Of a stretch of 44,185 nt of DNA, positions 377 through 38,614 are shown in pieces. A model generated the notes under the pieces. The model was not told the DNA's origin and did no database searches. It was given only the letters and a program-made list of their open reading frames with translations. The stretch's first letter is position 1. Each line of letters starts with the position of its first letter. The stretch comes from a virus (taxonomy: Duplodnaviria; Heunggongvirae; Uroviricota; Caudoviricetes), in IMG/VR virus record IMGVR_UViG_3300045988_018548; one strand, written 5' to 3'. The translations under genes were made by a program, and so were the position numbers.

Positions 377-862
377 TCATTTAACAGCCCTCCCGATAGC
401 CTCAGCCTCCTGCCACGGTTTACCGTCGAACAGCGCCAGACGACCTGCTGTACGGCGGCGCAGGCCGAGTAATGGTTTGCCGTTCTGGTTGATGAACAGC
501 GTTAGCTTGGCGCGAAGTATCGCAACATCACCAGATCGCAGTGCCTTACCTGTGCCAGTAGTAGCTGCAATCACGCCAGCACCCGCGTTATATACCAGGT
601 CGCACACTGCATCGAACTGCGCCTGTGCCAGTGAATGGTGTGCTGCGGCATCAACCGCAGCCACGGCCTTAGCCATATCACGATTCAGTAACAGGATGCC
701 TTGCCCCGGCGTGATGGTCTTACCTGGTGTTACGTCCGGCCCGTAGTGACCATAACCAATAGTCAGATACTTCTCGTTCGGCGTAGCACGATACGCAGTA
801 CCACGGAATCCCTCGAACGCGGCGGTGAAATGCAATCCATTATCTGAAATGTTTCGAGACAC
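377..862 (-). CDS. endolysin, phage lysozyme (GH24, P22 gp19 / T4 e-like)
   Basis: 161 aa; FEGFRGTAY...YLTIGYGH lysozyme N-terminal signature; GTG start at 862 preceded by GGAGG. Confidence 0.85.
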   Translation of the reverse strand: MSRNISDNGLHFTAAFEGFRGTAYRATPNEKYLTIGYGHYGPDVTPGKTITPGQGILLLNRDMAKAVAAVDAAAHHSLAQAQFDAVCDLVYNAGAGVIAATTGTGKALRSGDVAILRAKLTLFINQNGKPLLGLRRRTAGRLALFDGKPWQEAEAIGRAVK

Positions 863-1112
863 GCTTATGTCCTCCGTACGACAGCCACGCCTGACGAATC
901 TGACGCAGCGCGACTAATGTGATTAACGTCTCAGGCAACGTTGGTGACACGCTGCCCTGTAACAGGTGGATACATCCGGCGGCGCAGACAATCGCAGTCA
1001 GGATATAGAGCACACGCCCGAATAACCCGTCGTCCACGTGCTCATTATACACGTTGAACAGGGACGAAGCGCCCATTGCCAGCATTACGACAAACCAGAA
1101 TAGCTCAGTCAT
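840..1112 (-). CDS. holin-like small membrane protein (two predicted TM helices)
   Basis: Track ORF 840..1193; likely start ATG at 1112 (MTELFWFVVMLAMG) after GGGAGGA; hydrophobic segments LFWFVVMLAMGASSLF and VLYILTAIVCAAGCIHLL; overlaps endolysin start. Confidence 0.5.
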   Translation of the reverse strand: MTELFWFVVMLAMGASSLFNVYNEHVDDGLFGRVLYILTAIVCAAGCIHLLQGSVSPTLPETLITLVALRQIRQAWLSYGGHKRVSKHFR

Positions 1113-1413
1113 GAGGTCCTCCCGGGCGGGAAATATCGCCACCCGATACGATGCCAGAAAGGCGGGAATAGATAGGCATCCAGAGAATGGCAATGATGAA
1201 TCCGAGGCCAGCTATCTCGCGCTCACCGGTAATACCGAACCATTGAGCGGCAAGAGGCGCACCGAAAATGGCACACGCAAAGCCGGTTAGAAGAAATACC
1301 AGTCCGTCAATCGGCCCGGATATAGACTTTTTATGTTGTCTTAGTCCGACCAATCCACCGACCAGTGCGGCGGCGAGAAGCCACCCCGTCACTGTTTCAG
1401 TAAATTTATCCAA
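1105..1413 (-). CDS. holin/antiholin-like membrane protein (three predicted TM helices)
   Basis: 102 aa with three hydrophobic helices; stop overlaps start of next lysis gene (ATGACTGA). Confidence 0.5.
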   Translation of the reverse strand: MDKFTETVTGWLLAAALVGGLVGLRQHKKSISGPIDGLVFLLTGFACAIFGAPLAAQWFGITGEREIAGLGFIIAILWMPIYSRLSGIVSGGDISRPGGPHD

Positions 1414-1488
1414 GATGAATCCTCCAGGTGCGTATTAAGTATGCAGTAACTGGAGGATACCACGGGTAGGAATTATCCTAATAGTTGT

Positions 1489-1827
1489 TTATTTGTGTCT
1501 CCAGATGTATTGTCGTCTCTGCGGTTTCGTCGGAATATCATCGTACCCCAGCGATTTCCAGTAATTAAATAACCGATTAGCGATTGCTGCACGTTCCTTT
1601 GTTTTAAACTCACCGAGATTCACGGCCTTCCCGTTCTGGAATCCGCAGGCGCGGACTGCTTTGCGTCTGGCTTGAATCTCCGGGTGCAGCGCGTTACGGC
1701 GTCGCTTGTGTATTCTGGTGTTCGCTCTCGGTGAAAGCGGCGCAAGGCCGCTTCGTTTCAGGATGTCAGTTGCAAGGCTCATATTCCGAGAATCTCGCGG
1801 GCCATTTCTTCTGTAACTTTCGAACAA
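1489..1827 (-). CDS. hypothetical basic protein, possible AP2-like DNA-binding domain
   Basis: ORF in leftward accessory cluster; NGKAVNLGEFKTKERAAIANRLF resembles AP2 core by eye only. Confidence 0.3.
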   Translation of the reverse strand: MFESYRRNGPRDSRNMSLATDILKRSGLAPLSPRANTRIHKRRRNALHPEIQARRKAVRACGFQNGKAVNLGEFKTKERAAIANRLFNYWKSLGYDDIPTKPQRRQYIWRHK

Positions 1828-2178
1828 GGTTCGTTAATTACCTGTTCGGCGAATTCACGTAACTTTGCTTCAAGTTTCGCATAGTCTCTGTGGCCAACCC
1901 AGTCACCGTCTGCGTCTTTCTCTAAGTCAATACACCCAGTAACCCAGTCTTCTTTTAAATCGTATCTCTGTGCCATAATCACTTCTCCTGTTTACCAAGT
2001 CGCTTAGGGGAGCAGATAGCGCGTACCTCTGAATCGTTGGGTTTGTCCCCCTGAAACAGGAAGTGCGCATTTTCTGCGGCGCGTGCCGCTGACTGGCACG
2101 CCTCCATCGAGTAAAACGTTTCTGATGCCGCCAGTTGCATCTGGCCCGCGGACAATACCCATATAAATAAGATGCTGG

Positions 2179-33272: not shown

Positions 33273-34322
33273 TTAAGCACCGACACCAGTTACCAGGAAG
33301 GCAATCGGTACGTGCTTACGGTCAACAACACGATTCCAGTTGGAGGCGTTCGCCAGGTCCTGCCATGAAGCAGAGCGCGGGGTAGTCTCAGTACCGTTAC
33401 CGGTGATTACCGCGCTGGTGAAGCTGTAACCAAACGGATGTAGCAACCAGGTCTTGCGGGTCCACAGGGTTTCAACACCACCGCCGTTGCCGCGAGATGC
33501 TTCGCGCTCGTATTCCAGCGGGTTGGACGGAGAACCTTCACCGTAACCGATAGCGCCGTTGCCGAAGATGATGGAGATGAACTTACGGCTGACGCCGGAG
33601 CCAACTACGGTCATGCTGTCGTCAACAATCACGCGATAGCCCTGGTAGGTGGCGAACATGGTGTTATTGTCGGCGTCACGGATGAAGTCGATAAGCTGCT
33701 GCTTACGTGCCTGCGCATAAACGAAGCTGTGCATAGCAATAGCACCCAGCACTTCACCACCGTTGCCCATCAGCGCATCGCCCATAGTCTGGGTAGCGTC
33801 GATAAACGCGCCGGAGTCGAAGCCCAGAGAAGCAGACACGTCTACAACCATGTCATTCTGCTTGTGGTAATCATCGTCAGCGGCTACGTTGTCGTTGTAC
33901 AGGCCGAGCGCGGTAGCAATCAGACGACGTTGTGCCTGGCGCTGCCAGAAGTTATCCAGACGGGACGCTACGGAGCGCAGCGGCTGCTGGCTGGTCAGTT
34001 CAACAGTCAGGTCAGCCTGTCCAAAGCCTTCGTTCAGGTAGGCTACGCGAACGTCCATCTCACCGGTTTGCACGTTACGCGGGGTAGCGACGTCCTGGTA
34101 TACGTCGTTCGAGTAGTTCGGCTCGATAGAGGTATCAATCGCTTTCCAGTACGGCAGAACAGCTTTGTTAGACGGGCCGTTAGCGATAGCAGCGGCATAC
34201 GGAGTCGGGGTAAGGATACCAGACTGGAAGAACGCAGTTTTTTCTACCGGGTCTTCTGTCATGTAAGACAGAATGACCGATTCTTTACCAGTTACGATGT
34301 CGCCGATAGTAGTAATTGCCAT
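33273..34322 (-). CDS. major capsid protein
   Basis: 349 aa, directly after scaffold gene with TAATG-type overlap. Confidence 0.7.
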   Translation of the reverse strand: MAITTIGDIVTGKESVILSYMTEDPVEKTAFFQSGILTPTPYAAAIANGPSNKAVLPYWKAIDTSIEPNYSNDVYQDVATPRNVQTGEMDVRVAYLNEGFGQADLTVELTSQQPLRSVASRLDNFWQRQAQRRLIATALGLYNDNVAADDDYHKQNDMVVDVSASLGFDSGAFIDATQTMGDALMGNGGEVLGAIAMHSFVYAQARKQQLIDFIRDADNNTMFATYQGYRVIVDDSMTVVGSGVSRKFISIIFGNGAIGYGEGSPSNPLEYEREASRGNGGGVETLWTRKTWLLHPFGYSFTSAVITGNGTETTPRSASWQDLANASNWNRVVDRKHVPIAFLVTGVGA

Positions 34323-35026
34323 TATTTTTTCCTCAGGGCTTTAAGTTGCCGTTCAAATTCGGCAGGGTTCGATTCGTACAGAGCGATACGCTCCGCTTCA
34401 CTCATGTCTTTAAACGCTGGTGCGGCCCCGCCGCCTTTGCTACCGGAAGCCCCGCCGCCGGAAGCTGCATTTGCTTTAATCAAATGCGAAAACGCTTTGT
34501 GTTCGCGCAGGTATTTGCGGAACTGTTCCGGGTCAGTCGTGATTACGTTGCCATCTGCGCCAACAAACTTAGTAACCACATCATCGCCTTCAAACTCAGT
34601 CTTGACGAACGGCGCAAGAATGTCTACTGCTTCCGGGGTGATAAAGTCGCCCGCGAAAGAGCCTAACACCGCTTTACGTTCGCTGCCGAGGATGCGCTCT
34701 GCCATTCTGGAGATGCGACCATCTTTCTCGGCTAACACCGGGTCATACTGGCTACGAATCGTCTTTTCAAACTCGTCCATCTTACCAGCGGCTTTTAACG
34801 CCTCCTGGTGGGCACGCTGCCGTTCTTCTTCGGCCTCTTTTGCTTTACGAGCGGCTTCTTTCTTCTCCGCCAGCAATGCTTCCTGATTGGCCTTAAGCCC
34901 GGCGACTTCTTTCTCAATCAGCGCCTGAACTTCTTCGGCTGTGAACATTTTCGGCGCGTCACCGCCACCAGATTTATCTTCTACCCCAGCTTCTTCCTGG
35001 AACGGATAACGTAAAAAACGATTCAT
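34322..35026 (-). CDS. scaffolding protein
   Basis: Track ORF 34322..35080; start ATG 35026 (MNRFLRYPF); Lys/Glu/Ala-rich coiled-coil composition. Confidence 0.6.
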   Translation of the reverse strand: MNRFLRYPFQEEAGVEDKSGGGDAPKMFTAEEVQALIEKEVAGLKANQEALLAEKKEAARKAKEAEEERQRAHQEALKAAGKMDEFEKTIRSQYDPVLAEKDGRISRMAERILGSERKAVLGSFAGDFITPEAVDILAPFVKTEFEGDDVVTKFVGADGNVITTDPEQFRKYLREHKAFSHLIKANAASGGGASGSKGGGAAPAFKDMSEAERIALYESNPAEFERQLKALRKK

Positions 35027-35108
35027 AGTCAGTATGTCCCCTGGACGTTGGAATCCGGGCCACCCGGATTTACATGTCAAGAATAAATTATTCCACTTAC
35101 TAAGGCAA

Positions 35109-35372
35109 CTATTCCAGAATATTCCTCACGTAATCCTGCAACATGAACACTTTCAGTCGCAGTTGCCGTGCGCATTCGGCGTTCTGAACGTCAATAGCCA
35201 AATCCTCGTCTGCGTCGCTACTTGGCGGGGCCAGTTTGCACGGCGGCTGCATCATCGTCGTATCCGGGTATGGAATTGGCGTTTGCGACGGCGCGGGACT
35301 TGAGCTGCACGCGCTCATGGTCAAAAGTGCACACGCTGCGGCCAGGCGTTTTAATGTACTTAACGACTTCAC
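35109..35372 (-). CDS. o-spanin (Rz1-like outer-membrane lipoprotein)
   Basis: 87 aa; signal peptide with lipobox-like LLTMSAC, proline-rich mature region; overlaps 3' end of i-spanin in another frame. Confidence 0.6.
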   Translation of the reverse strand: MKSLSTLKRLAAACALLTMSACSSSPAPSQTPIPYPDTTMMQPPCKLAPPSSDADEDLAIDVQNAECARQLRLKVFMLQDYVRNILE

Positions 35373-35981: not shown

Positions 35982-36233
35982 ATGATTACGAAACCAGCAA
36001 AACATCGTGTACAGGACCTTGGTTCCTTTCTTAAAAAAGAGTATGAACAGGCTGAATTACGCGGCGATATTTCGGCGTATATTGAGCTTCAGCAGATGCA
36101 ACTGGACGCGCAAGAAGACGGGGATATGTCTCTATCCGCCGCGCTCGGTAGAAGTATGCGCCAGATTCGTGAAAAGTATAACCAAAACGTCTGGAATAAA
36201 GAGATTAACTTAACCCAAGAGACTGGGTATTGA
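35982..36233 (+). CDS. small hydrophilic protein, lone rightward gene inside late region
   Basis: 83 aa with own promoter and terminator; RBS AGAGG. Confidence 0.45.
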   Translation: MITKPAKHRVQDLGSFLKKEYEQAELRGDISAYIELQQMQLDAQEDGDMSLSAALGRSMRQIREKYNQNVWNKEINLTQETGY

Positions 36234-36237
36234 AACT

Positions 36238-36259
36238 AAGGCCCCGTAAGGGGCCTTTT
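36238..36259. terminator. bidirectional terminator aaggcccc-gtaa-ggggcctt + TT
   Basis: Perfect 8-bp GC stem between convergent genes. Confidence 0.65.
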
Positions 36260-36260
36260 A

Positions 36261-36722
36261 TCATTCTGGTTTAGTGACCTTCGCCGCCTTGCTCACCGCC
36301 TCTACCCCATCGGCATCAGTAACTTTAACGAAGTATTCACCGACCGCATTAACCGTCAGTGACGAGGCCTCTTCCGGGGCGTTTACAACTTCCTTACCGT
36401 CTTTGTACCAGGTCAGCGCGTACGGGGCTTTACCCGCCTTAACTTCAACAGTGATAATTGCGCTGCCGTCCACCAGTTCGGTGCCTTGCGGTTGTACGGA
36501 GAAATACACATCGCCAGCATCGGCCAGATACGGAATTTCATAAAGCATACCTGCCGCGGAGAGTGCGATACCGGTTTTATCCGCGTACGGCATCTCGTCT
36601 ACAGGTGTACCTAGTACACTTTCATCTTCAACGTAGGTTACGTTCTCGCCGGAGCCAGACACACGAGCGTACTGGACTACGCGACGCGACGGCACATCAG
36701 TTACTTTGAAAAAGCCCATCAT
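36261..36722 (-). CDS. Ig-like (Big_2-type) domain protein
   Basis: 153 aa; C-terminal ITVEVKAGKAPYALTWYKDGKEV ... GEYFVKVTDADG; start overlaps stop of head morphogenesis gene (TAATG). Confidence 0.5.
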   Translation of the reverse strand: MMGFFKVTDVPSRRVVQYARVSGSGENVTYVEDESVLGTPVDEMPYADKTGIALSAAGMLYEIPYLADAGDVYFSVQPQGTELVDGSAIITVEVKAGKAPYALTWYKDGKEVVNAPEEASSLTVNAVGEYFVKVTDADGVEAVSKAAKVTKPE

Positions 36723-38614
36723 TAATCCCCTTTCAGATAATCAGCAACACGTTTATCGAGTTCCGCCATCTGCTTAAGCGTGAGCGGATTCCCGAAACCA
36801 TCTACAGATATTACGCGAAACTCTTCCGGTGATATACCGCTGTTACGGAAAATCTTACCGCGAACAGGGCCGAGCGCCTGGTCCTGAAACCACGCAGGTT
36901 GTTGTTTGAGGAACTCATAATAGGTGGTGTCTGCACTTACCTGCATACCACCGTCCGCACCCTTAGCCGCGCGTTTTGCGCCTTTATCGAGGAAGTCGAA
37001 CTCAGAACTGATTACTGGCGCGGTTGTTGAGCGACAATTATGTGCTATAATTCCATTTGCGAGATACCAGTTCTGTTCATTTTCGAGGTTATAAACATGC
37101 CCGCAAAAATCAGCTTCACTAAAGACCAAATCGACAACATCATCAAGCTCTATACCGACGGCATCGGACCAGTTGAAATCGGAAAGATTATCGGCGTTTC
37201 GTGTAACCCAGTCATACGCGTTCTCAGAGAGAACGGCGTTAGTATTCGCGGTGTCAGCGACGCTATGTTTATCAGAATGGCTAAAGCTACTCCCGAGGAG
37301 CGCCTCGCTCTCTCCGCCGCGGCGCATGAAGCTGTCCGAGGGAGAAAGGCCGACCATGCTGAACTGCTTCGCAGAGCCAAAGCCAGAGAGGGAGTCATAA
37401 ATGCGGGAAGCCACTGGGAGTTCCTTGTCAATGATTTGCTTATTCAGTCCGGACTTGACTTTATCCCAGGAAAGGCGGTTGACAAGTACAATCTCGACTT
37501 CGCCGTCGGTTCCGTCGCCGTGGAAGTCTTCGGTGGTGGTTGGGCTTGTACGGACCGCCGCAGGATTGACCGCTACATTAGCCGCACTAAACAAATCGGA
37601 GAACTTGGCTACAACGTTGTGTTCCTTATGCTTGAGAGAGAGCGCAGAGTCCTTAGCGCACACGAGCTTGTCGCCTACATTGAGAAGGCCGGAAGCAACC
37701 CAACCATTGGTAGTCAATACCTGGTGGTTTGGGGTGATAGACAAGGTGCGACCGGACCTTGTAGAGACATAGACTATAGTGCCTTTGTACGCCCGTTTAA
37801 AAATGTTAGAAACCGGACTACCGGTAGATACTACAGTATCCCCAAGTAAGCAATTATGATGGGCCGGAGGCATCGGCCCTTTACCGATTTCCCACGTCAT
37901 CCTGTCTCTGGCTCTGCAAATCGTACTGGTACGGCTGTCCAGCGTTGATACCCACTCGTATTTCTCGATGATGTCGTCGTTCTGGCGGTACGTCTCGTTA
38001 CGGGCTTCGTTGGATACATGAGACAGCGCGGTGCGGATTACTGTAGCCGCGTTACGTTCTGAGATGTCGGCCAGCCCACCAGAGCCTACGACATTCTTAA
38101 CAATCTGCCGTGTGGTTTGACCTTGTACAAAGCCCATCTTAACTCCAGTTACGAGGCGGGCGACTTCGGTTTCACCCCAACCAGACATCAATTTAGTGAA
38201 GTCAACAGGCTTGTCGTTTAACGATAATGGCTGAAAATCGGCGGCGGCCCACACCTGTTCGGCGGTAGGCGTAACAAATTCCGCGTTAACGTTGGCGGTT
38301 AGTGTCTTTACGTTCCACTCAGCCTCGTATGCCGCCAGTTCCTTAAGGTCTTCTGTCAGCTTTGTTTGCCAATCGCCGGTAAGTCCGGTTAGCGCTTCTT
38401 CAAGGTCGAGTAACAGTTTATTCAGTCGCGCAGTGCTCCGCCCGTCATCACCGAATAACAGCACCTGCCGTTTTATTTCATCCCGCATCTCCTTAATGAA
38501 CGGTGCGAGGTCTTTCACCTCACCGGATGCGGTGCGTTGCAGCCATATCTGATGGCTGATGAGTGATGTAAGTAAGCTCATAGTTAAACCCTGTGGTGCT
38601 AAAGTTAATAGCAT
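36722..38614 (-). CDS. head morphogenesis protein (phage Mu F / SPP1 gp7-like) containing an intein
   Basis: 630-aa precursor; exteins join to ...STICRARDRMTWEIGKGPMPPAHHN-CRSTTAP..., matching the H-x-N-C-R signature of this family; located between portal and capsid genes. Confidence 0.75.
   Translation of the reverse strand: MLLTLAPQGLTMSLLTSLISHQIWLQRTASGEVKDLAPFIKEMRDEIKRQVLLFGDDGRSTARLNKLLLDLEEALTGLTGDWQTKLTEDLKELAAYEAEWNVKTLTANVNAEFVTPTAEQVWAAADFQPLSLNDKPVDFTKLMSGWGETEVARLVTGVKMGFVQGQTTRQIVKNVVGSGGLADISERNAATVIRTALSHVSNEARNETYRQNDDIIEKYEWVSTLDSRTSTICRARDRMTWEIGKGPMPPAHHNCLLGDTVVSTGSPVSNIFKRAYKGTIVYVSTRSGRTLSITPNHQVLTTNGWVASGLLNVGDKLVCAKDSALSLKHKEHNVVAKFSDLFSAANVAVNPAAVRTSPTTTEDFHGDGTDGEVEIVLVNRLSWDKVKSGLNKQIIDKELPVASRIYDSLSGFGSAKQFSMVGLSPSDSFMRRGGESEALLGSSFSHSDKHSVADTANTNAVLSENAYDWVTRNADNLSDFNWSDAVGIELDDVVDLVFSEADFCGHVYNLENEQNWYLANGIIAHNCRSTTAPVISSEFDFLDKGAKRAAKGADGGMQVSADTTYYEFLKQQPAWFQDQALGPVRGKIFRNSGISPEEFRVISVDGFGNPLTLKQMAELDKRVADYLKGD
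37024..37051 (+). promoter_or_regulatory. extended -10 promoter (TTGTTG-N16-TGcTATAAT) inside the intein, plus-strand
   Basis: Perfect TATAAT at 37046..37051 with TG at 37043..37044; 45 bp upstream of GAGGT RBS (37085..37089) and ATG 37097. Confidence 0.45.
37037..37852 (-). other. intein (272 aa, Hint splicing domain) within the head morphogenesis gene
   Basis: Begins CLLGDTVV (block A), TPNHQVLT (block B), ends VYNLENEQNWYLANGIIAHN followed by Cys (blocks F/G); no in-frame LAGLIDADG or HNH module seen. Confidence 0.8.
37097..37849 (+). CDS. HTH + DUF559/Vsr-like (PD-(D/E)xK-fold) endonuclease-like protein, encoded antisense within the intein
   Basis: Track ORF 37040..37849, start revised to ATG 37097 with GAGGT RBS; N-terminal HTH-like GPVEIGKIIGVSCNPVIRVLRENG; core YNLDFAVGSVAVEVFGGGW ... 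DRRRIDRYISRTKQIGELGYNVVFL resembles DUF559; balanced K/E/D/I composition unlike shadow ORFs. Caveat: same codon register as the minus-strand gene. Confidence 0.5.
   Translation: MPAKISFTKDQIDNIIKLYTDGIGPVEIGKIIGVSCNPVIRVLRENGVSIRGVSDAMFIRMAKATPEERLALSAAAHEAVRGRKADHAELLRRAKAREGVINAGSHWEFLVNDLLIQSGLDFIPGKAVDKYNLDFAVGSVAVEVFGGGWACTDRRRIDRYISRTKQIGELGYNVVFLMLERERRVLSAHELVAYIEKAGSNPTIGSQYLVVWGDRQGATGPCRDIDYSAFVRPFKNVRNRTTGRYYSIPK

Follow-up and report, generated by a model that had tools for sequence, protein, structure and literature searches.

The subject of this report is a stretch of 44,185 nucleotides (nt) of viral DNA (IMG/VR record IMGVR_UViG_3300045988_018548, called the window below), and in particular an intein in its head-morphogenesis gene that carries a second gene on the opposite strand. 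With very high confidence, the open reading frame (ORF) that runs on the plus strand through this intein is a real gene under purifying selection, whose product combines a helix-turn-helix (HTH) module with a Vsr-like nuclease core. We consider it probable that the whole is a composite mobile intein with its two functions on opposite strands, the minus strand providing protein splicing and the plus strand a Vsr-like nuclease that would drive homing.

The intein and the gene on its opposite strand

The window phage belongs to the Guernseyvirinae (Kagunavirus/Jerseyvirus group); among its DNA matches, Escherichia phage Snoke ranks first, at 94%. The features on which the argument depends are listed here, with lengths of proteins in amino acids (aa).

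36722..38614, minus strand: MuF-like (SPP1 gp7 / Mu F) head-morphogenesis gene, a 630-aa ORF open through the intein
37037..37852, minus strand: intein of 272 aa, class 1, running from Cys1 to His-Asn and followed by Cys+1
37649..37852, minus strand: Hint-N splicing region with blocks A and B (TPNH...T..GW), selected mainly in the minus frame
37151..37648, minus strand: intein 'linker' of ~166 aa, the antisense reading of the nuclease gene, as judged from substitution rates, model confidence and stop avoidance
37037..37150, minus strand: Hint-C splicing region with block F (GHVYNLE) and block G (NGIIAHN), as judged from invariant residues
37097..37849 (stop included), plus strand: antisense gene for a 250-aa HTH and Vsr-like nuclease, a putative homing endonuclease, as judged from selection, homologues and structure prediction
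37118..37231, plus strand: N-terminal HTH DNA-binding module (aa 8-45)
37409..37741, plus strand: Vsr-like PD-(D/E)xK nuclease core (aa ~105-215)

The product of the host gene matches phrog_241 (head morphogenesis) at E=1e-147, as well as the Pfam families Phage_Mu_F (38.2 bits, above the curated cut-off) and Intein_splicing (40.2 bits vs a cut-off of 35.8). In relatives the start of the gene is annotated about 11 codons downstream, at MSLLTSL (~38581). The intein begins at Cys1 (CLLGDTVV..., codon 37850-37852) and ends with ...GIIAHN, the Asn codon being 37037-37039 and that of Cys+1 37034-37036; it is inserted after the N and before the C of the conserved MuF motif PPAH(H/P)N-CRSTTAPV, where the hyphen marks the insertion point. 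All of the class-1 Hint hallmarks are present: the N-terminal Cys, the TPNH of block B, the C-terminal His-Asn and Cys+1. In the minus-frame alignment the invariant residues are T40, N42, H43, T47, G50 and W51 in Hint-N, and G251, H252, V253, Y254, N255, Y263, H271 and N272 in Hint-C, the latter region being better conserved than any other part of the gene (88-100% nucleotide identity). The intein is predicted to be competent for splicing, given the low dN/dS of the C-extein and the open minus frame described below. Its existence in this group of phages is on record: the Snoke record and genome announcement describe a 'large intein' in the capsid morphogenesis protein, present in LSPA1 and missing from K1ind2, and leave an endonuclease unmentioned.

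On the plus strand, a stop-to-stop ORF extends over 37031..37846 and is closed by TAA at 37847-37849. It offers two ATG codons, at 37040 (for a product of 269 aa) and at 37097 (250 aa). Two relatives (L013 and L018) carry an in-frame TAG between these ATGs, 9 nt upstream of the second, so that 37097 is the start usable by all. Plus and minus codons are exactly complementary to each other, position 1 of the plus frame falling on position 3 of the minus frame and position 2 being shared. A first-pass annotation, made from the letters of the window without database searches, had placed an endonuclease-like ORF at 37097..37849 within an intein at 37037..37852, and both sets of coordinates are correct.

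Which frame is under selection

The length of an ORF is a poor guide in this setting. A shadow ORF of 480 codons exists in the same window (33444..34883, plus strand), antisense to the major head gene (33276-34340, minus strand) and the scaffold gene (34325-35125, minus strand); length was rejected as evidence for this reason, and selection was tested directly instead. The alternative at stake is a plus ORF that arose by chance as the shadow of the intein frame, with homologues that merely mirror the conservation of the minus strand. It has some initial appeal, since long shadows are most to be expected in the codon-antisense frame. The window does have others, such as the 480-codon example, and conservation does in part carry across complement frames: outside the splicing blocks the minus frame is conserved just at FHGDGTDGEVEIV, which is the mirror of the plus catalytic core.

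To distinguish the frames, the MuF gene of the window was aligned with those of nine related phages (intein 78-96% identical), and variable sites were counted per codon position. Given for plus positions 1, 2 and 3, the counts are 213, 70 and 97 in one extein, 91, 14 and 24 in the other, and 16, 1 and 6 in the C-terminal splicing region; in the exteins and Hint-C, then, variation is concentrated on the third position of the minus frame. The counts for the intein centre (37151-37650) are 50, 23 and 105, a flip to the third position of the plus frame (chi-square p=2.5e-17 against 304, 84 and 121 in the pooled exteins). The Nei-Gojobori ratios of nonsynonymous to synonymous substitution (dN/dS), which come from overlapping frames and are biased in their absolute values, so that the contrast between regions alone is robust, reverse at the same place: 0.08-0.18 in the plus frame and 1.07-3.2 in the minus frame of the centre, vs 0.02-0.11 in the minus frame (0.02-0.06 for the C-extein alone) and at least 1 in the plus frame of the exteins. 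The two splicing regions give minus-frame ratios of 0-0.1 (Hint-C, 37037-37096) and 0.26-0.49 (Hint-N), and Hint-N is intermediate in both frames, its plus-frame ratio being 0.58-1.2. The amino-acid identity of the centre is 78-79% in the plus frame and 48-49% in the minus frame (79% and 49% in the comparison with vB_STM-ZS).

More distant sequences tell the same story. Across 13 distant loci, the plus-frame scores of the centre range over 49-139 bits and its minus-frame scores over 0-63 bits, the former being two to three times the latter in every locus, and Hint-N scores essentially in the minus frame only. When the same DNA was used to query the protein database in both readings, the plus frame found 50%-identical homologues at E=1e-76 and the minus-frame intein found distant ones at E=1e-24. 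A homologue of the plus protein also stands free in Acinetobacter phage IME285, with no ORF opposite, as described below, and the plus product is predicted with confidence to have a nuclease fold, and the centre of the minus-frame product to be disordered. The 480-codon shadow served as a control. It contains five stops in one relative and one in another, its variable sites track the wobble of the minus-strand genes, and its product had no PHROG or family match; the plus ORF of the intein thus behaves in the opposite way to this shadow. We regard the chance-shadow explanation as already refuted by these observations. The suggestion of the first-pass annotation that the plus product is protein-like, and the minus reading of the same bases is not, is borne out by the wobble, the dN/dS contrast, the bit scores and the predicted disorder of the minus centre alike.

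Both strands are kept open

A stop on the minus strand arises wherever the plus frame uses TTA, CTA or TCA. The plus gene of the window has 17 Leu and 14 Ser codons, none of which is TTA, CTA or TCA (P=1.1e-3 under phage codon usage). For 12 distant loci, the probability that the minus frame would be open, given the plus protein and the local codon usage, ranges from 1e-9 to 0.1 each and sums to a log10 of -49; the avoidance holds in AT-rich hosts too, where TTA is the commonest Leu codon. Both frames are open, in the identical codon-antisense phase, in 12/12 distant intein loci, three metagenome contigs included. The plus ORF is open in 22/22 loci examined, and an antisense nuclease ORF between the splicing blocks is combined with an uninterrupted minus frame in the window and in 21/21 related intein loci, the 22nd locus being that of IME285, without an intein. 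The minus frame through the centre is therefore maintained stop-free by selection, and the earlier proposal that the nuclease gene is antisense while the intein frame stays open through it holds well beyond the window.

It follows, too, that the host gene is not 'fractured': the C-extein is under strong purifying selection, and it can be made solely by translation through the insert. A fractured gene with a split intein had been suggested by the broken minus-strand genes of some metagenome contigs, and it was rejected, since the minus frame is open in those contigs and in 21 related loci. Gene callers working on the metagenome contigs pick the plus gene and split or truncate MuF around it (4001-4903 in L021, 2144-2890 in L022 and 4001-5062 in L020). 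The minus-frame intein of these three contigs nevertheless reads HxNC-L...HN-C in two cases, and the third ends in ...SSN-C. For this element, the splitting of MuF around the plus gene is an annotation artefact, and a systematic one.

An open minus frame under such strong selection could also mean that its centre is a functional domain in its own right, for example one that binds DNA or regulates assembly, and that the region is truly dual-coding. The intermediate dN/dS of both frames in the Hint-N overlap would fit this, as would a short plus-strand motif antisense to block B that recurs in the free-standing protein of IME285. The motif in question is NPTIGSQYLVV (aa 201-211; 37697..37729, plus strand), which lies antisense to block B (TPNHQVLTTNGW); IME285 has the similar NPLPDGYFKVL with no intein opposite, so that either both strands truly encode protein in this stretch or the free-standing gene derives from an intein-borne one. 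The centre itself gives a different picture. Its minus-frame dN/dS is at or above 1 and its amino-acid identity trails far behind that of the plus frame, no Pfam match was found in the linker centre, and the minus alignment conserves just the splicing blocks apart from the mirror of the catalytic core. The linker is rich in small and polar residues (24 of 166 are Ser; the combined fraction of S, T, N, D, G and P is 0.43). In the AlphaFold2 (AF2) model of the minus-frame intein, built on an eight-sequence alignment, the mean pLDDT score (for predicted local distance difference test) is 41.5, with residues 69-223 below 50 and the centre at 23-38, and moderate confidence is restricted to parts of the two splicing regions. 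We consider a second functional domain in the minus-frame centre very unlikely, and prefer to read the centre as a linker that has only to stay open.

The putative nuclease, its predicted fold and its active site

Used as a single sequence, the plus protein is difficult to classify. The PHROGs search returned weak matches to the HTH segment only, and a single-sequence search of the PDB gave spurious helical-repeat matches only; the weakness of such searches is the reason why classification needed a family profile and a structure model. With the family profile, the best PDB match is the homing endonuclease I-Bth0305I (E=9.7e-6). Five of 14 relatives match a Vsr-like restriction endonuclease Pfam family at E<0.01, many members of the family carry the precomputed assignment PF18741 (MTES_1575), two carry PF04480 (DUF559), and some an HTH assignment. 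The window protein is a superfamily relative of MTES_1575/DUF559, not a member by threshold. The AF2 model of the plus protein (pLDDT 83; predicted template modelling score 0.60; 14-sequence alignment) has three short N-terminal helices, a helical linker and an alpha/beta core. Among the structural likenesses listed for it are RAP domains, which we take to be Vsr-like folds, and, for the N terminus, the HTH domains of GcrA and Tc3. The assignment of an HTH-like N terminus and a DUF559/Vsr-like core in the first-pass annotation, weak by single-sequence Pfam search, is in this way confirmed by the profile and the model. Most relatives, of about 300 aa or more, have two HTH modules, and the 250-aa proteins of the window clade have one.

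In the core, E108, D134, E143 and G146 are invariant (E108 and D134 in 14/14 sequences), and W149 and R163 are nearly so. The residues of I-Bth0305I correspond to those of the window protein as follows.

E170 of I-Bth0305I: E108, invariant
D196 of I-Bth0305I: D134, invariant
E206 of I-Bth0305I: E143, invariant
N208 of I-Bth0305I: F145, Phe or Leu in the family
H213 of I-Bth0305I, H69 of Vsr: A150, Ser or Ala in the close clade; His only in the deeper-branching P0009-P0013
D222 of I-Bth0305I, D97 of Vsr: Tyr160 by profile alignment, not conserved; the nearby Asp158 is not conserved in the family

The motif EVFGGGW at aa 143-149 had been taken in the first-pass annotation as a departure from an expected EVDG and a hint that the catalytic site is degenerate. 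The motif is indeed there, and it has the form E-V-F/L-G-G-x-W throughout the family, resembling F-V-H-G-C-F-W-H of Vsr and I-E-V-N-G-V-Y-W-H of I-Bth0305I; EVFGGGW is thus the norm rather than a sign of decay, and the invariance of E108, D134 and E143 speaks in the same direction. What survives of the suggestion is the replacement of the catalytic His by Ala150. In the clade with Ala150 the catalytic mechanism may differ, or the activity may be reduced. Between the HTH and the core lies another conserved stretch, AHEAVRG (aa 76-82, part of AAAHEAVRG; 37322..37342, plus strand), in which A76-H77-x-A79-x-x-G82 is invariant or nearly so. As a matter of speculation, His77 is a candidate substitute for the His missing at position 150.

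Relatives of the nuclease and a free-standing homologue

A tblastn search with the plus protein found 106 phage records. Beyond phages of Salmonella and E. coli, the relatives include phages of Vibrio (44% identity), Gordonia (35%), Klebsiella, Cronobacter, Aggregatibacter (Aaphi23), Idiomarinaceae, Edwardsiella and Acinetobacter, and a Helicobacter prophage. At the loci that were fetched, the match lies antisense inside an annotated MuF or head gene in all but IME285. The protein database holds 14 homologues by single sequence and at least 138 by profile, down to 27% identity, several of which were named 'very-short-patch-repair endonuclease' by JGI. Most of these come from short contigs of ~0.9-3 kb (13/14 in the first listing and most in the profile search), and the metagenome relatives are marine and from soil. 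One copy, in Salmonella phage GE_vB_M5 (MG969410.1; P0124), appears frame-shifted in both frames of the intein: its tblastn match falls in two places and P0124 diverges mid-way, which is due either to sequencing error or to a decaying copy.

Free-standing homing endonuclease genes that sit beside their targets, in what is called intronless or 'collaborative' homing, occur in T4-like phages and cyanophages. The homologue in IME285 (L010) is similar in that it lies beside an intein-less MuF, whereas the nuclease gene of the window lies inside the intein. It is a free-standing gene of 297 aa (455-1348, plus strand), annotated as 'hypothetical', with an opposite strand full of stops. It is convergent with an intein-less MuF-like gene (1342-2055, minus strand; ending ...PMCKCRAKL...), with an overlap of a few bases, and lies some 50 bp from the CKCR site. 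The protein family can therefore exist independently of any intein frame. The arrangement is possibly an ancestral or an escaped state. It supports a course of events in which a free-standing nuclease, aimed at the MuF motif, later invaded a mini-intein, which is the origin of composite inteins favoured by Dassa et al. (PMC2677866) and by a recent preprint (bioRxiv 10.1101/2025.01.02.630785).

Movement of the intein

The intein moves horizontally between phages. Its identity to the window is 78-96%, vs 67-93% for the exteins, and it is the higher of the two in every comparison. For LPSE1 the values are 95.7% and 73.1%, and in the phages with exteins ~73% identical the intein is at 94-96%; nucleotide identity shifts abruptly at both intein borders. 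The empty site is equally well represented. There are 135 phage records with an uninterrupted MuF allele, whose identity over the junction reaches 91%, and fFiEco03 reads ...PPAHPN-CRSTTAPV... without interruption exactly where the spliced product of the window would read ...PPAHHN-CRSTTAPV.... In the intein-less DNA (K1ind2 or fFiEco03), the sequence ...CATCCTAAT is joined at the junction directly to TGCCGAAGC.... The comparison of phages with and without the insert, which the first-pass annotation had put forward as a check, therefore yields an exact empty site. A co-conversion or immunity signature was sought at the extein junctions, where synonymous differences are present with no consistent pattern between intein-plus and intein-minus alleles (one intein-minus allele was compared). 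The intein of Salmonella phage SGP007 (L014) is a mosaic, in which the nuclease part is ~97% identical to the window and Hint-N ~68-88%, with a breakpoint near window positions 37600-37625; the element would thus have undergone internal recombination or partial gene conversion.

Candidate signals for expression of the nuclease gene

The putative expression signals of the plus gene lie in and near the codons of the C-terminal splicing motifs.

37085..37099, plus strand: Shine-Dalgarno GAGG (37085-37088), 8-nt spacer and ATG (37097-37099)
37043..37051, plus strand: candidate extended -10 element TGCTATAAT, complement of the block-G codons ATT ATA GCA
37024-37029, plus strand: possible -35 element TTGTTG

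Read on the other strand, the ATG at 37097 is the invariant His codon of block F, an antisense relation that is found in most of the distant lineages as well, and the Shine-Dalgarno derives from the block-F Leu-Asn codons. The candidate extended -10 is a consensus match that was first spotted by eye and then tested: it is the sole TGNTATAAT on both strands of the 44-kb window (37043-37051, plus strand), 46 nt 5' of the ATG, and the choice of block-G codons that gives rise to it has P~0.016 under phage codon usage. The Vibrio phage L003 has a perfect TGnTATAAT at the same place, and the Idiomarinaceae phage L008 has one in its block G; Aaphi23 (L006) has another perfect extended -10 upstream of its start, and several other relatives match at 5/6. 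An intein-borne promoter for the nuclease gene is plausible on these grounds.

Upstream of the gene, the only plus-strand hit of the standard promoter scan is at 36429-36458, weak and 640 nt away. A GC-rich hairpin terminator, AAGGCCCC-GTAA-GGGGCCTT, is present at 36238..36257, where Snoke is annotated with a bidirectional terminator; it sits between a plus-strand gene (35982-36233) and a minus-strand gene for a Hoc-like decoration protein (36261-36722), and would stop plus-strand read-through toward the antisense nuclease gene.

Is the plus gene a homing endonuclease?

Several results weigh against a composite intein with a homing nuclease. Taken alone, the window protein falls below the Pfam thresholds (HTH_7 at E=0.078; MTES_1575 at E=0.12, with 12.9 bits vs a cut-off of 38.2), and the alignments behind the two AF2 models are shallow, at 14 and 8 sequences. 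The absolute dN/dS values carry the bias already mentioned. At the active site, the His of Vsr (H69) and of I-Bth0305I (H213) is replaced by Ala150 in the window clade, and the equivalent of D222 is not conserved. The extended -10 is missing from the relatives in Klebsiella and Edwardsiella phages and from the GC-rich actinophage relatives, and a standard -35/-10 promoter scan gave no qualifying plus-strand promoter near the gene. Finally, the literature searched holds no transcription, translation, cleavage or splicing data for the element or its relatives.

Some of these points could be accommodated by a gene that is real but serves another purpose, be it a DNA-binding regulator or a nuclease for superinfection exclusion, anti-defence or recombination, with the intein as a tolerated site that spreads by ordinary recombination. 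The Ala at the H69 position and the unconserved last Asp of the EDxHD motif would be in keeping with such a role, as would the prominence of the HTH modules, which are duplicated in most relatives. Mosaicism is, besides, usual in phage genomes, and the SGP007 intein shows recombination within a gene. The distribution of the family speaks for homing instead: it is found almost only inside MuF-type inteins or beside an intein-less MuF, as expected of a site-specific homing enzyme, and what is transferred horizontally has the same borders as the intein. Residues E108, D134 and E143 do not vary, nucleotide conservation of the core is 90-98%, and the closest characterised relative apart from Vsr, by structure and by sequence, is a proven homing endonuclease. 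A role other than homing is, in our judgement, unlikely, with more in its favour than a functional domain in the minus-frame centre would have. On good but indirect evidence, the plus gene is probably the homing endonuclease of the intein.

In the composite intein that we propose, the MuF gene would be translated on the minus strand straight through the insert. The two Hint segments, an N-terminal one of ~68 aa and a C-terminal one of ~38 aa, would fold together and splice the insert out, restoring ...PPAHHN-CRSTT..., and the ~166 residues between them would act only as a flexible, stop-free linker. On the plus strand, the 250-aa protein with its HTH and its PD-(D/E)xK core related to I-Bth0305I would be made from its own start at 37097. 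In a mixed infection the nuclease would cut intein-less MuF alleles, with a presumed site at or near HxN-CR, and repair from the intein-bearing genome would copy the whole cassette into the cut allele, which is homing. Since the start codon, the Shine-Dalgarno and the candidate promoter all lie inside the C-terminal splicing motifs, the cassette would travel complete.

Comparison with known systems

The architecture is not new: antisense Vsr-like homing endonucleases (HENs) were reported in 2025, and antisense LAGLIDADG enzymes in 1998. The closest system is that of the actinobacteriophages, in which anti-sense VSR-like HENs were described in full inteins of host genes that include minor capsid proteins (Gosselin, Arsenault & Gogarten, bioRxiv 10.1101/2025.01.02.630785). 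The two systems share a contiguous MuF-type intein, an opposite-strand Vsr-like ORF between the splicing blocks, and an in-frame centre without structure. They are linked by sequence as well, in that tblastn with the window protein finds matches antisense to MuF in two Gordonia phages, Vivi2 (35%, E=6e-25) and ViaConlectus (E=5e-8), the latter of which appears in the minor-capsid phylogeny of the preprint (Figure 7; bioRxiv 10.1101/2025.01.02.630785). The window clade differs in having one HTH module and no His equivalent to H213. The survey of the preprint was of PhagesDB only, whereas the element of the window occurs in Enterobacteria phages (Guernseyvirinae) with relatives beyond, and the parts of the preprint that were searched contain no codon-level selection test, stop-avoidance analysis or expression signals. 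In the literature searched, the architecture had been reported only from sequence surveys of actinophages. What is added here is the selection on each frame region by region, the statistics of stop avoidance, the breadth across Proteobacteria phages and metagenomes, the homologue of IME285, and the signals drawn from splicing-motif codons.

Antisense LAGLIDADG endonucleases have been described in inteins such as that of Synechocystis DnaX (Gorbalenya 1998, 'Non-canonical inteins', and Gogarten et al. 2002, both cited in bioRxiv 10.1101/2025.01.02.630785). As presented there, they have in common with the window a HEN on the opposite strand and an intein frame that stays open, but they differ in fold (LAGLIDADG vs Vsr-like PD-(D/E)xK) and in host genes, and are cellular rather than phage-borne.

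Two further systems share the nuclease type. I-Bth0305I, a homing endonuclease of the EDxHD family, is located within a group I intron (Taylor et al. 2011, PMC3239194). In 'fractured genes', Vsr-like nucleases have free-standing genes of their own, placed between the halves of split inteins and pointing the same way (Dassa et al. 2009, PMC2677866). With both, the element of the window shares an N-terminal HTH/NUMOD-type region, a C-terminal Vsr-like domain and an association with self-splicing elements in phage genes. With I-Bth0305I the homology is detectable in sequence and in structure, and the equivalents of E170, D196 and E206 are conserved; the equivalent of H213 is Ala, in which the window protein departs from the EDxHD pattern, and that of D222 is not conserved. 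It differs from the fractured-gene nucleases in that the gene is antisense and the host gene unbroken. A last comparison is with the 'hidden' out-of-frame HNH insertions of the ShiLan type in the methylase genes of phages (Arsenault et al. 2025, PMC11855218), where a homing nuclease likewise occupies an alternative frame of an insertion that is open in the frame of the host gene. There, however, the overlap is on the same strand, the nuclease is of the HNH kind, splicing domains are lacking, and the insertion is retained as a loop of the protein.

Implications for inteins and their phages

The start codon, the Shine-Dalgarno and the candidate promoter of the nuclease gene are all composed from codons of the splicing motifs. 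It is conceivable, though we would put it at somewhat less than an even chance, that nuclease gene and intein are interlocked codon by codon in this way as a general principle of dual-strand mobile elements across the phages of Proteobacteria and Actinobacteria. If this is true, selection for splicing shields the expression signals of the nuclease, the choice of codons in the splicing motifs is selected for promoter strength, and the cost to the nuclease gene is that it can never use TTA, CTA or TCA. Interlocking may also explain MuF inteins that have long been described as endonuclease-free. The MuF (Mu gp30 F) intein of a Mu-like prophage of Methylococcus capsulatus, for example, was reported to have no recognisable endonuclease and to be probably immobile (PMC517821, 2004); it may have the same antisense nuclease inside.

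For the Guernseyvirinae, the intein of the capsid-morphogenesis gene was already annotated, its endonuclease had gone unrecognised, and the plus gene is missing or 'hypothetical' in many records. Here, some 750 bp are read on both strands, one of which codes for a folded enzyme while the other need only avoid stops and stay flexible. These are lytic phages of E. coli and Salmonella with many intein-minus relatives, and the expression of an antisense gene against a late structural operon can be tested in standard hosts. In the same hosts it would also be possible to test the activity of a nuclease without the Vsr-type His, and splicing around a 166-residue 'nonsense' linker.

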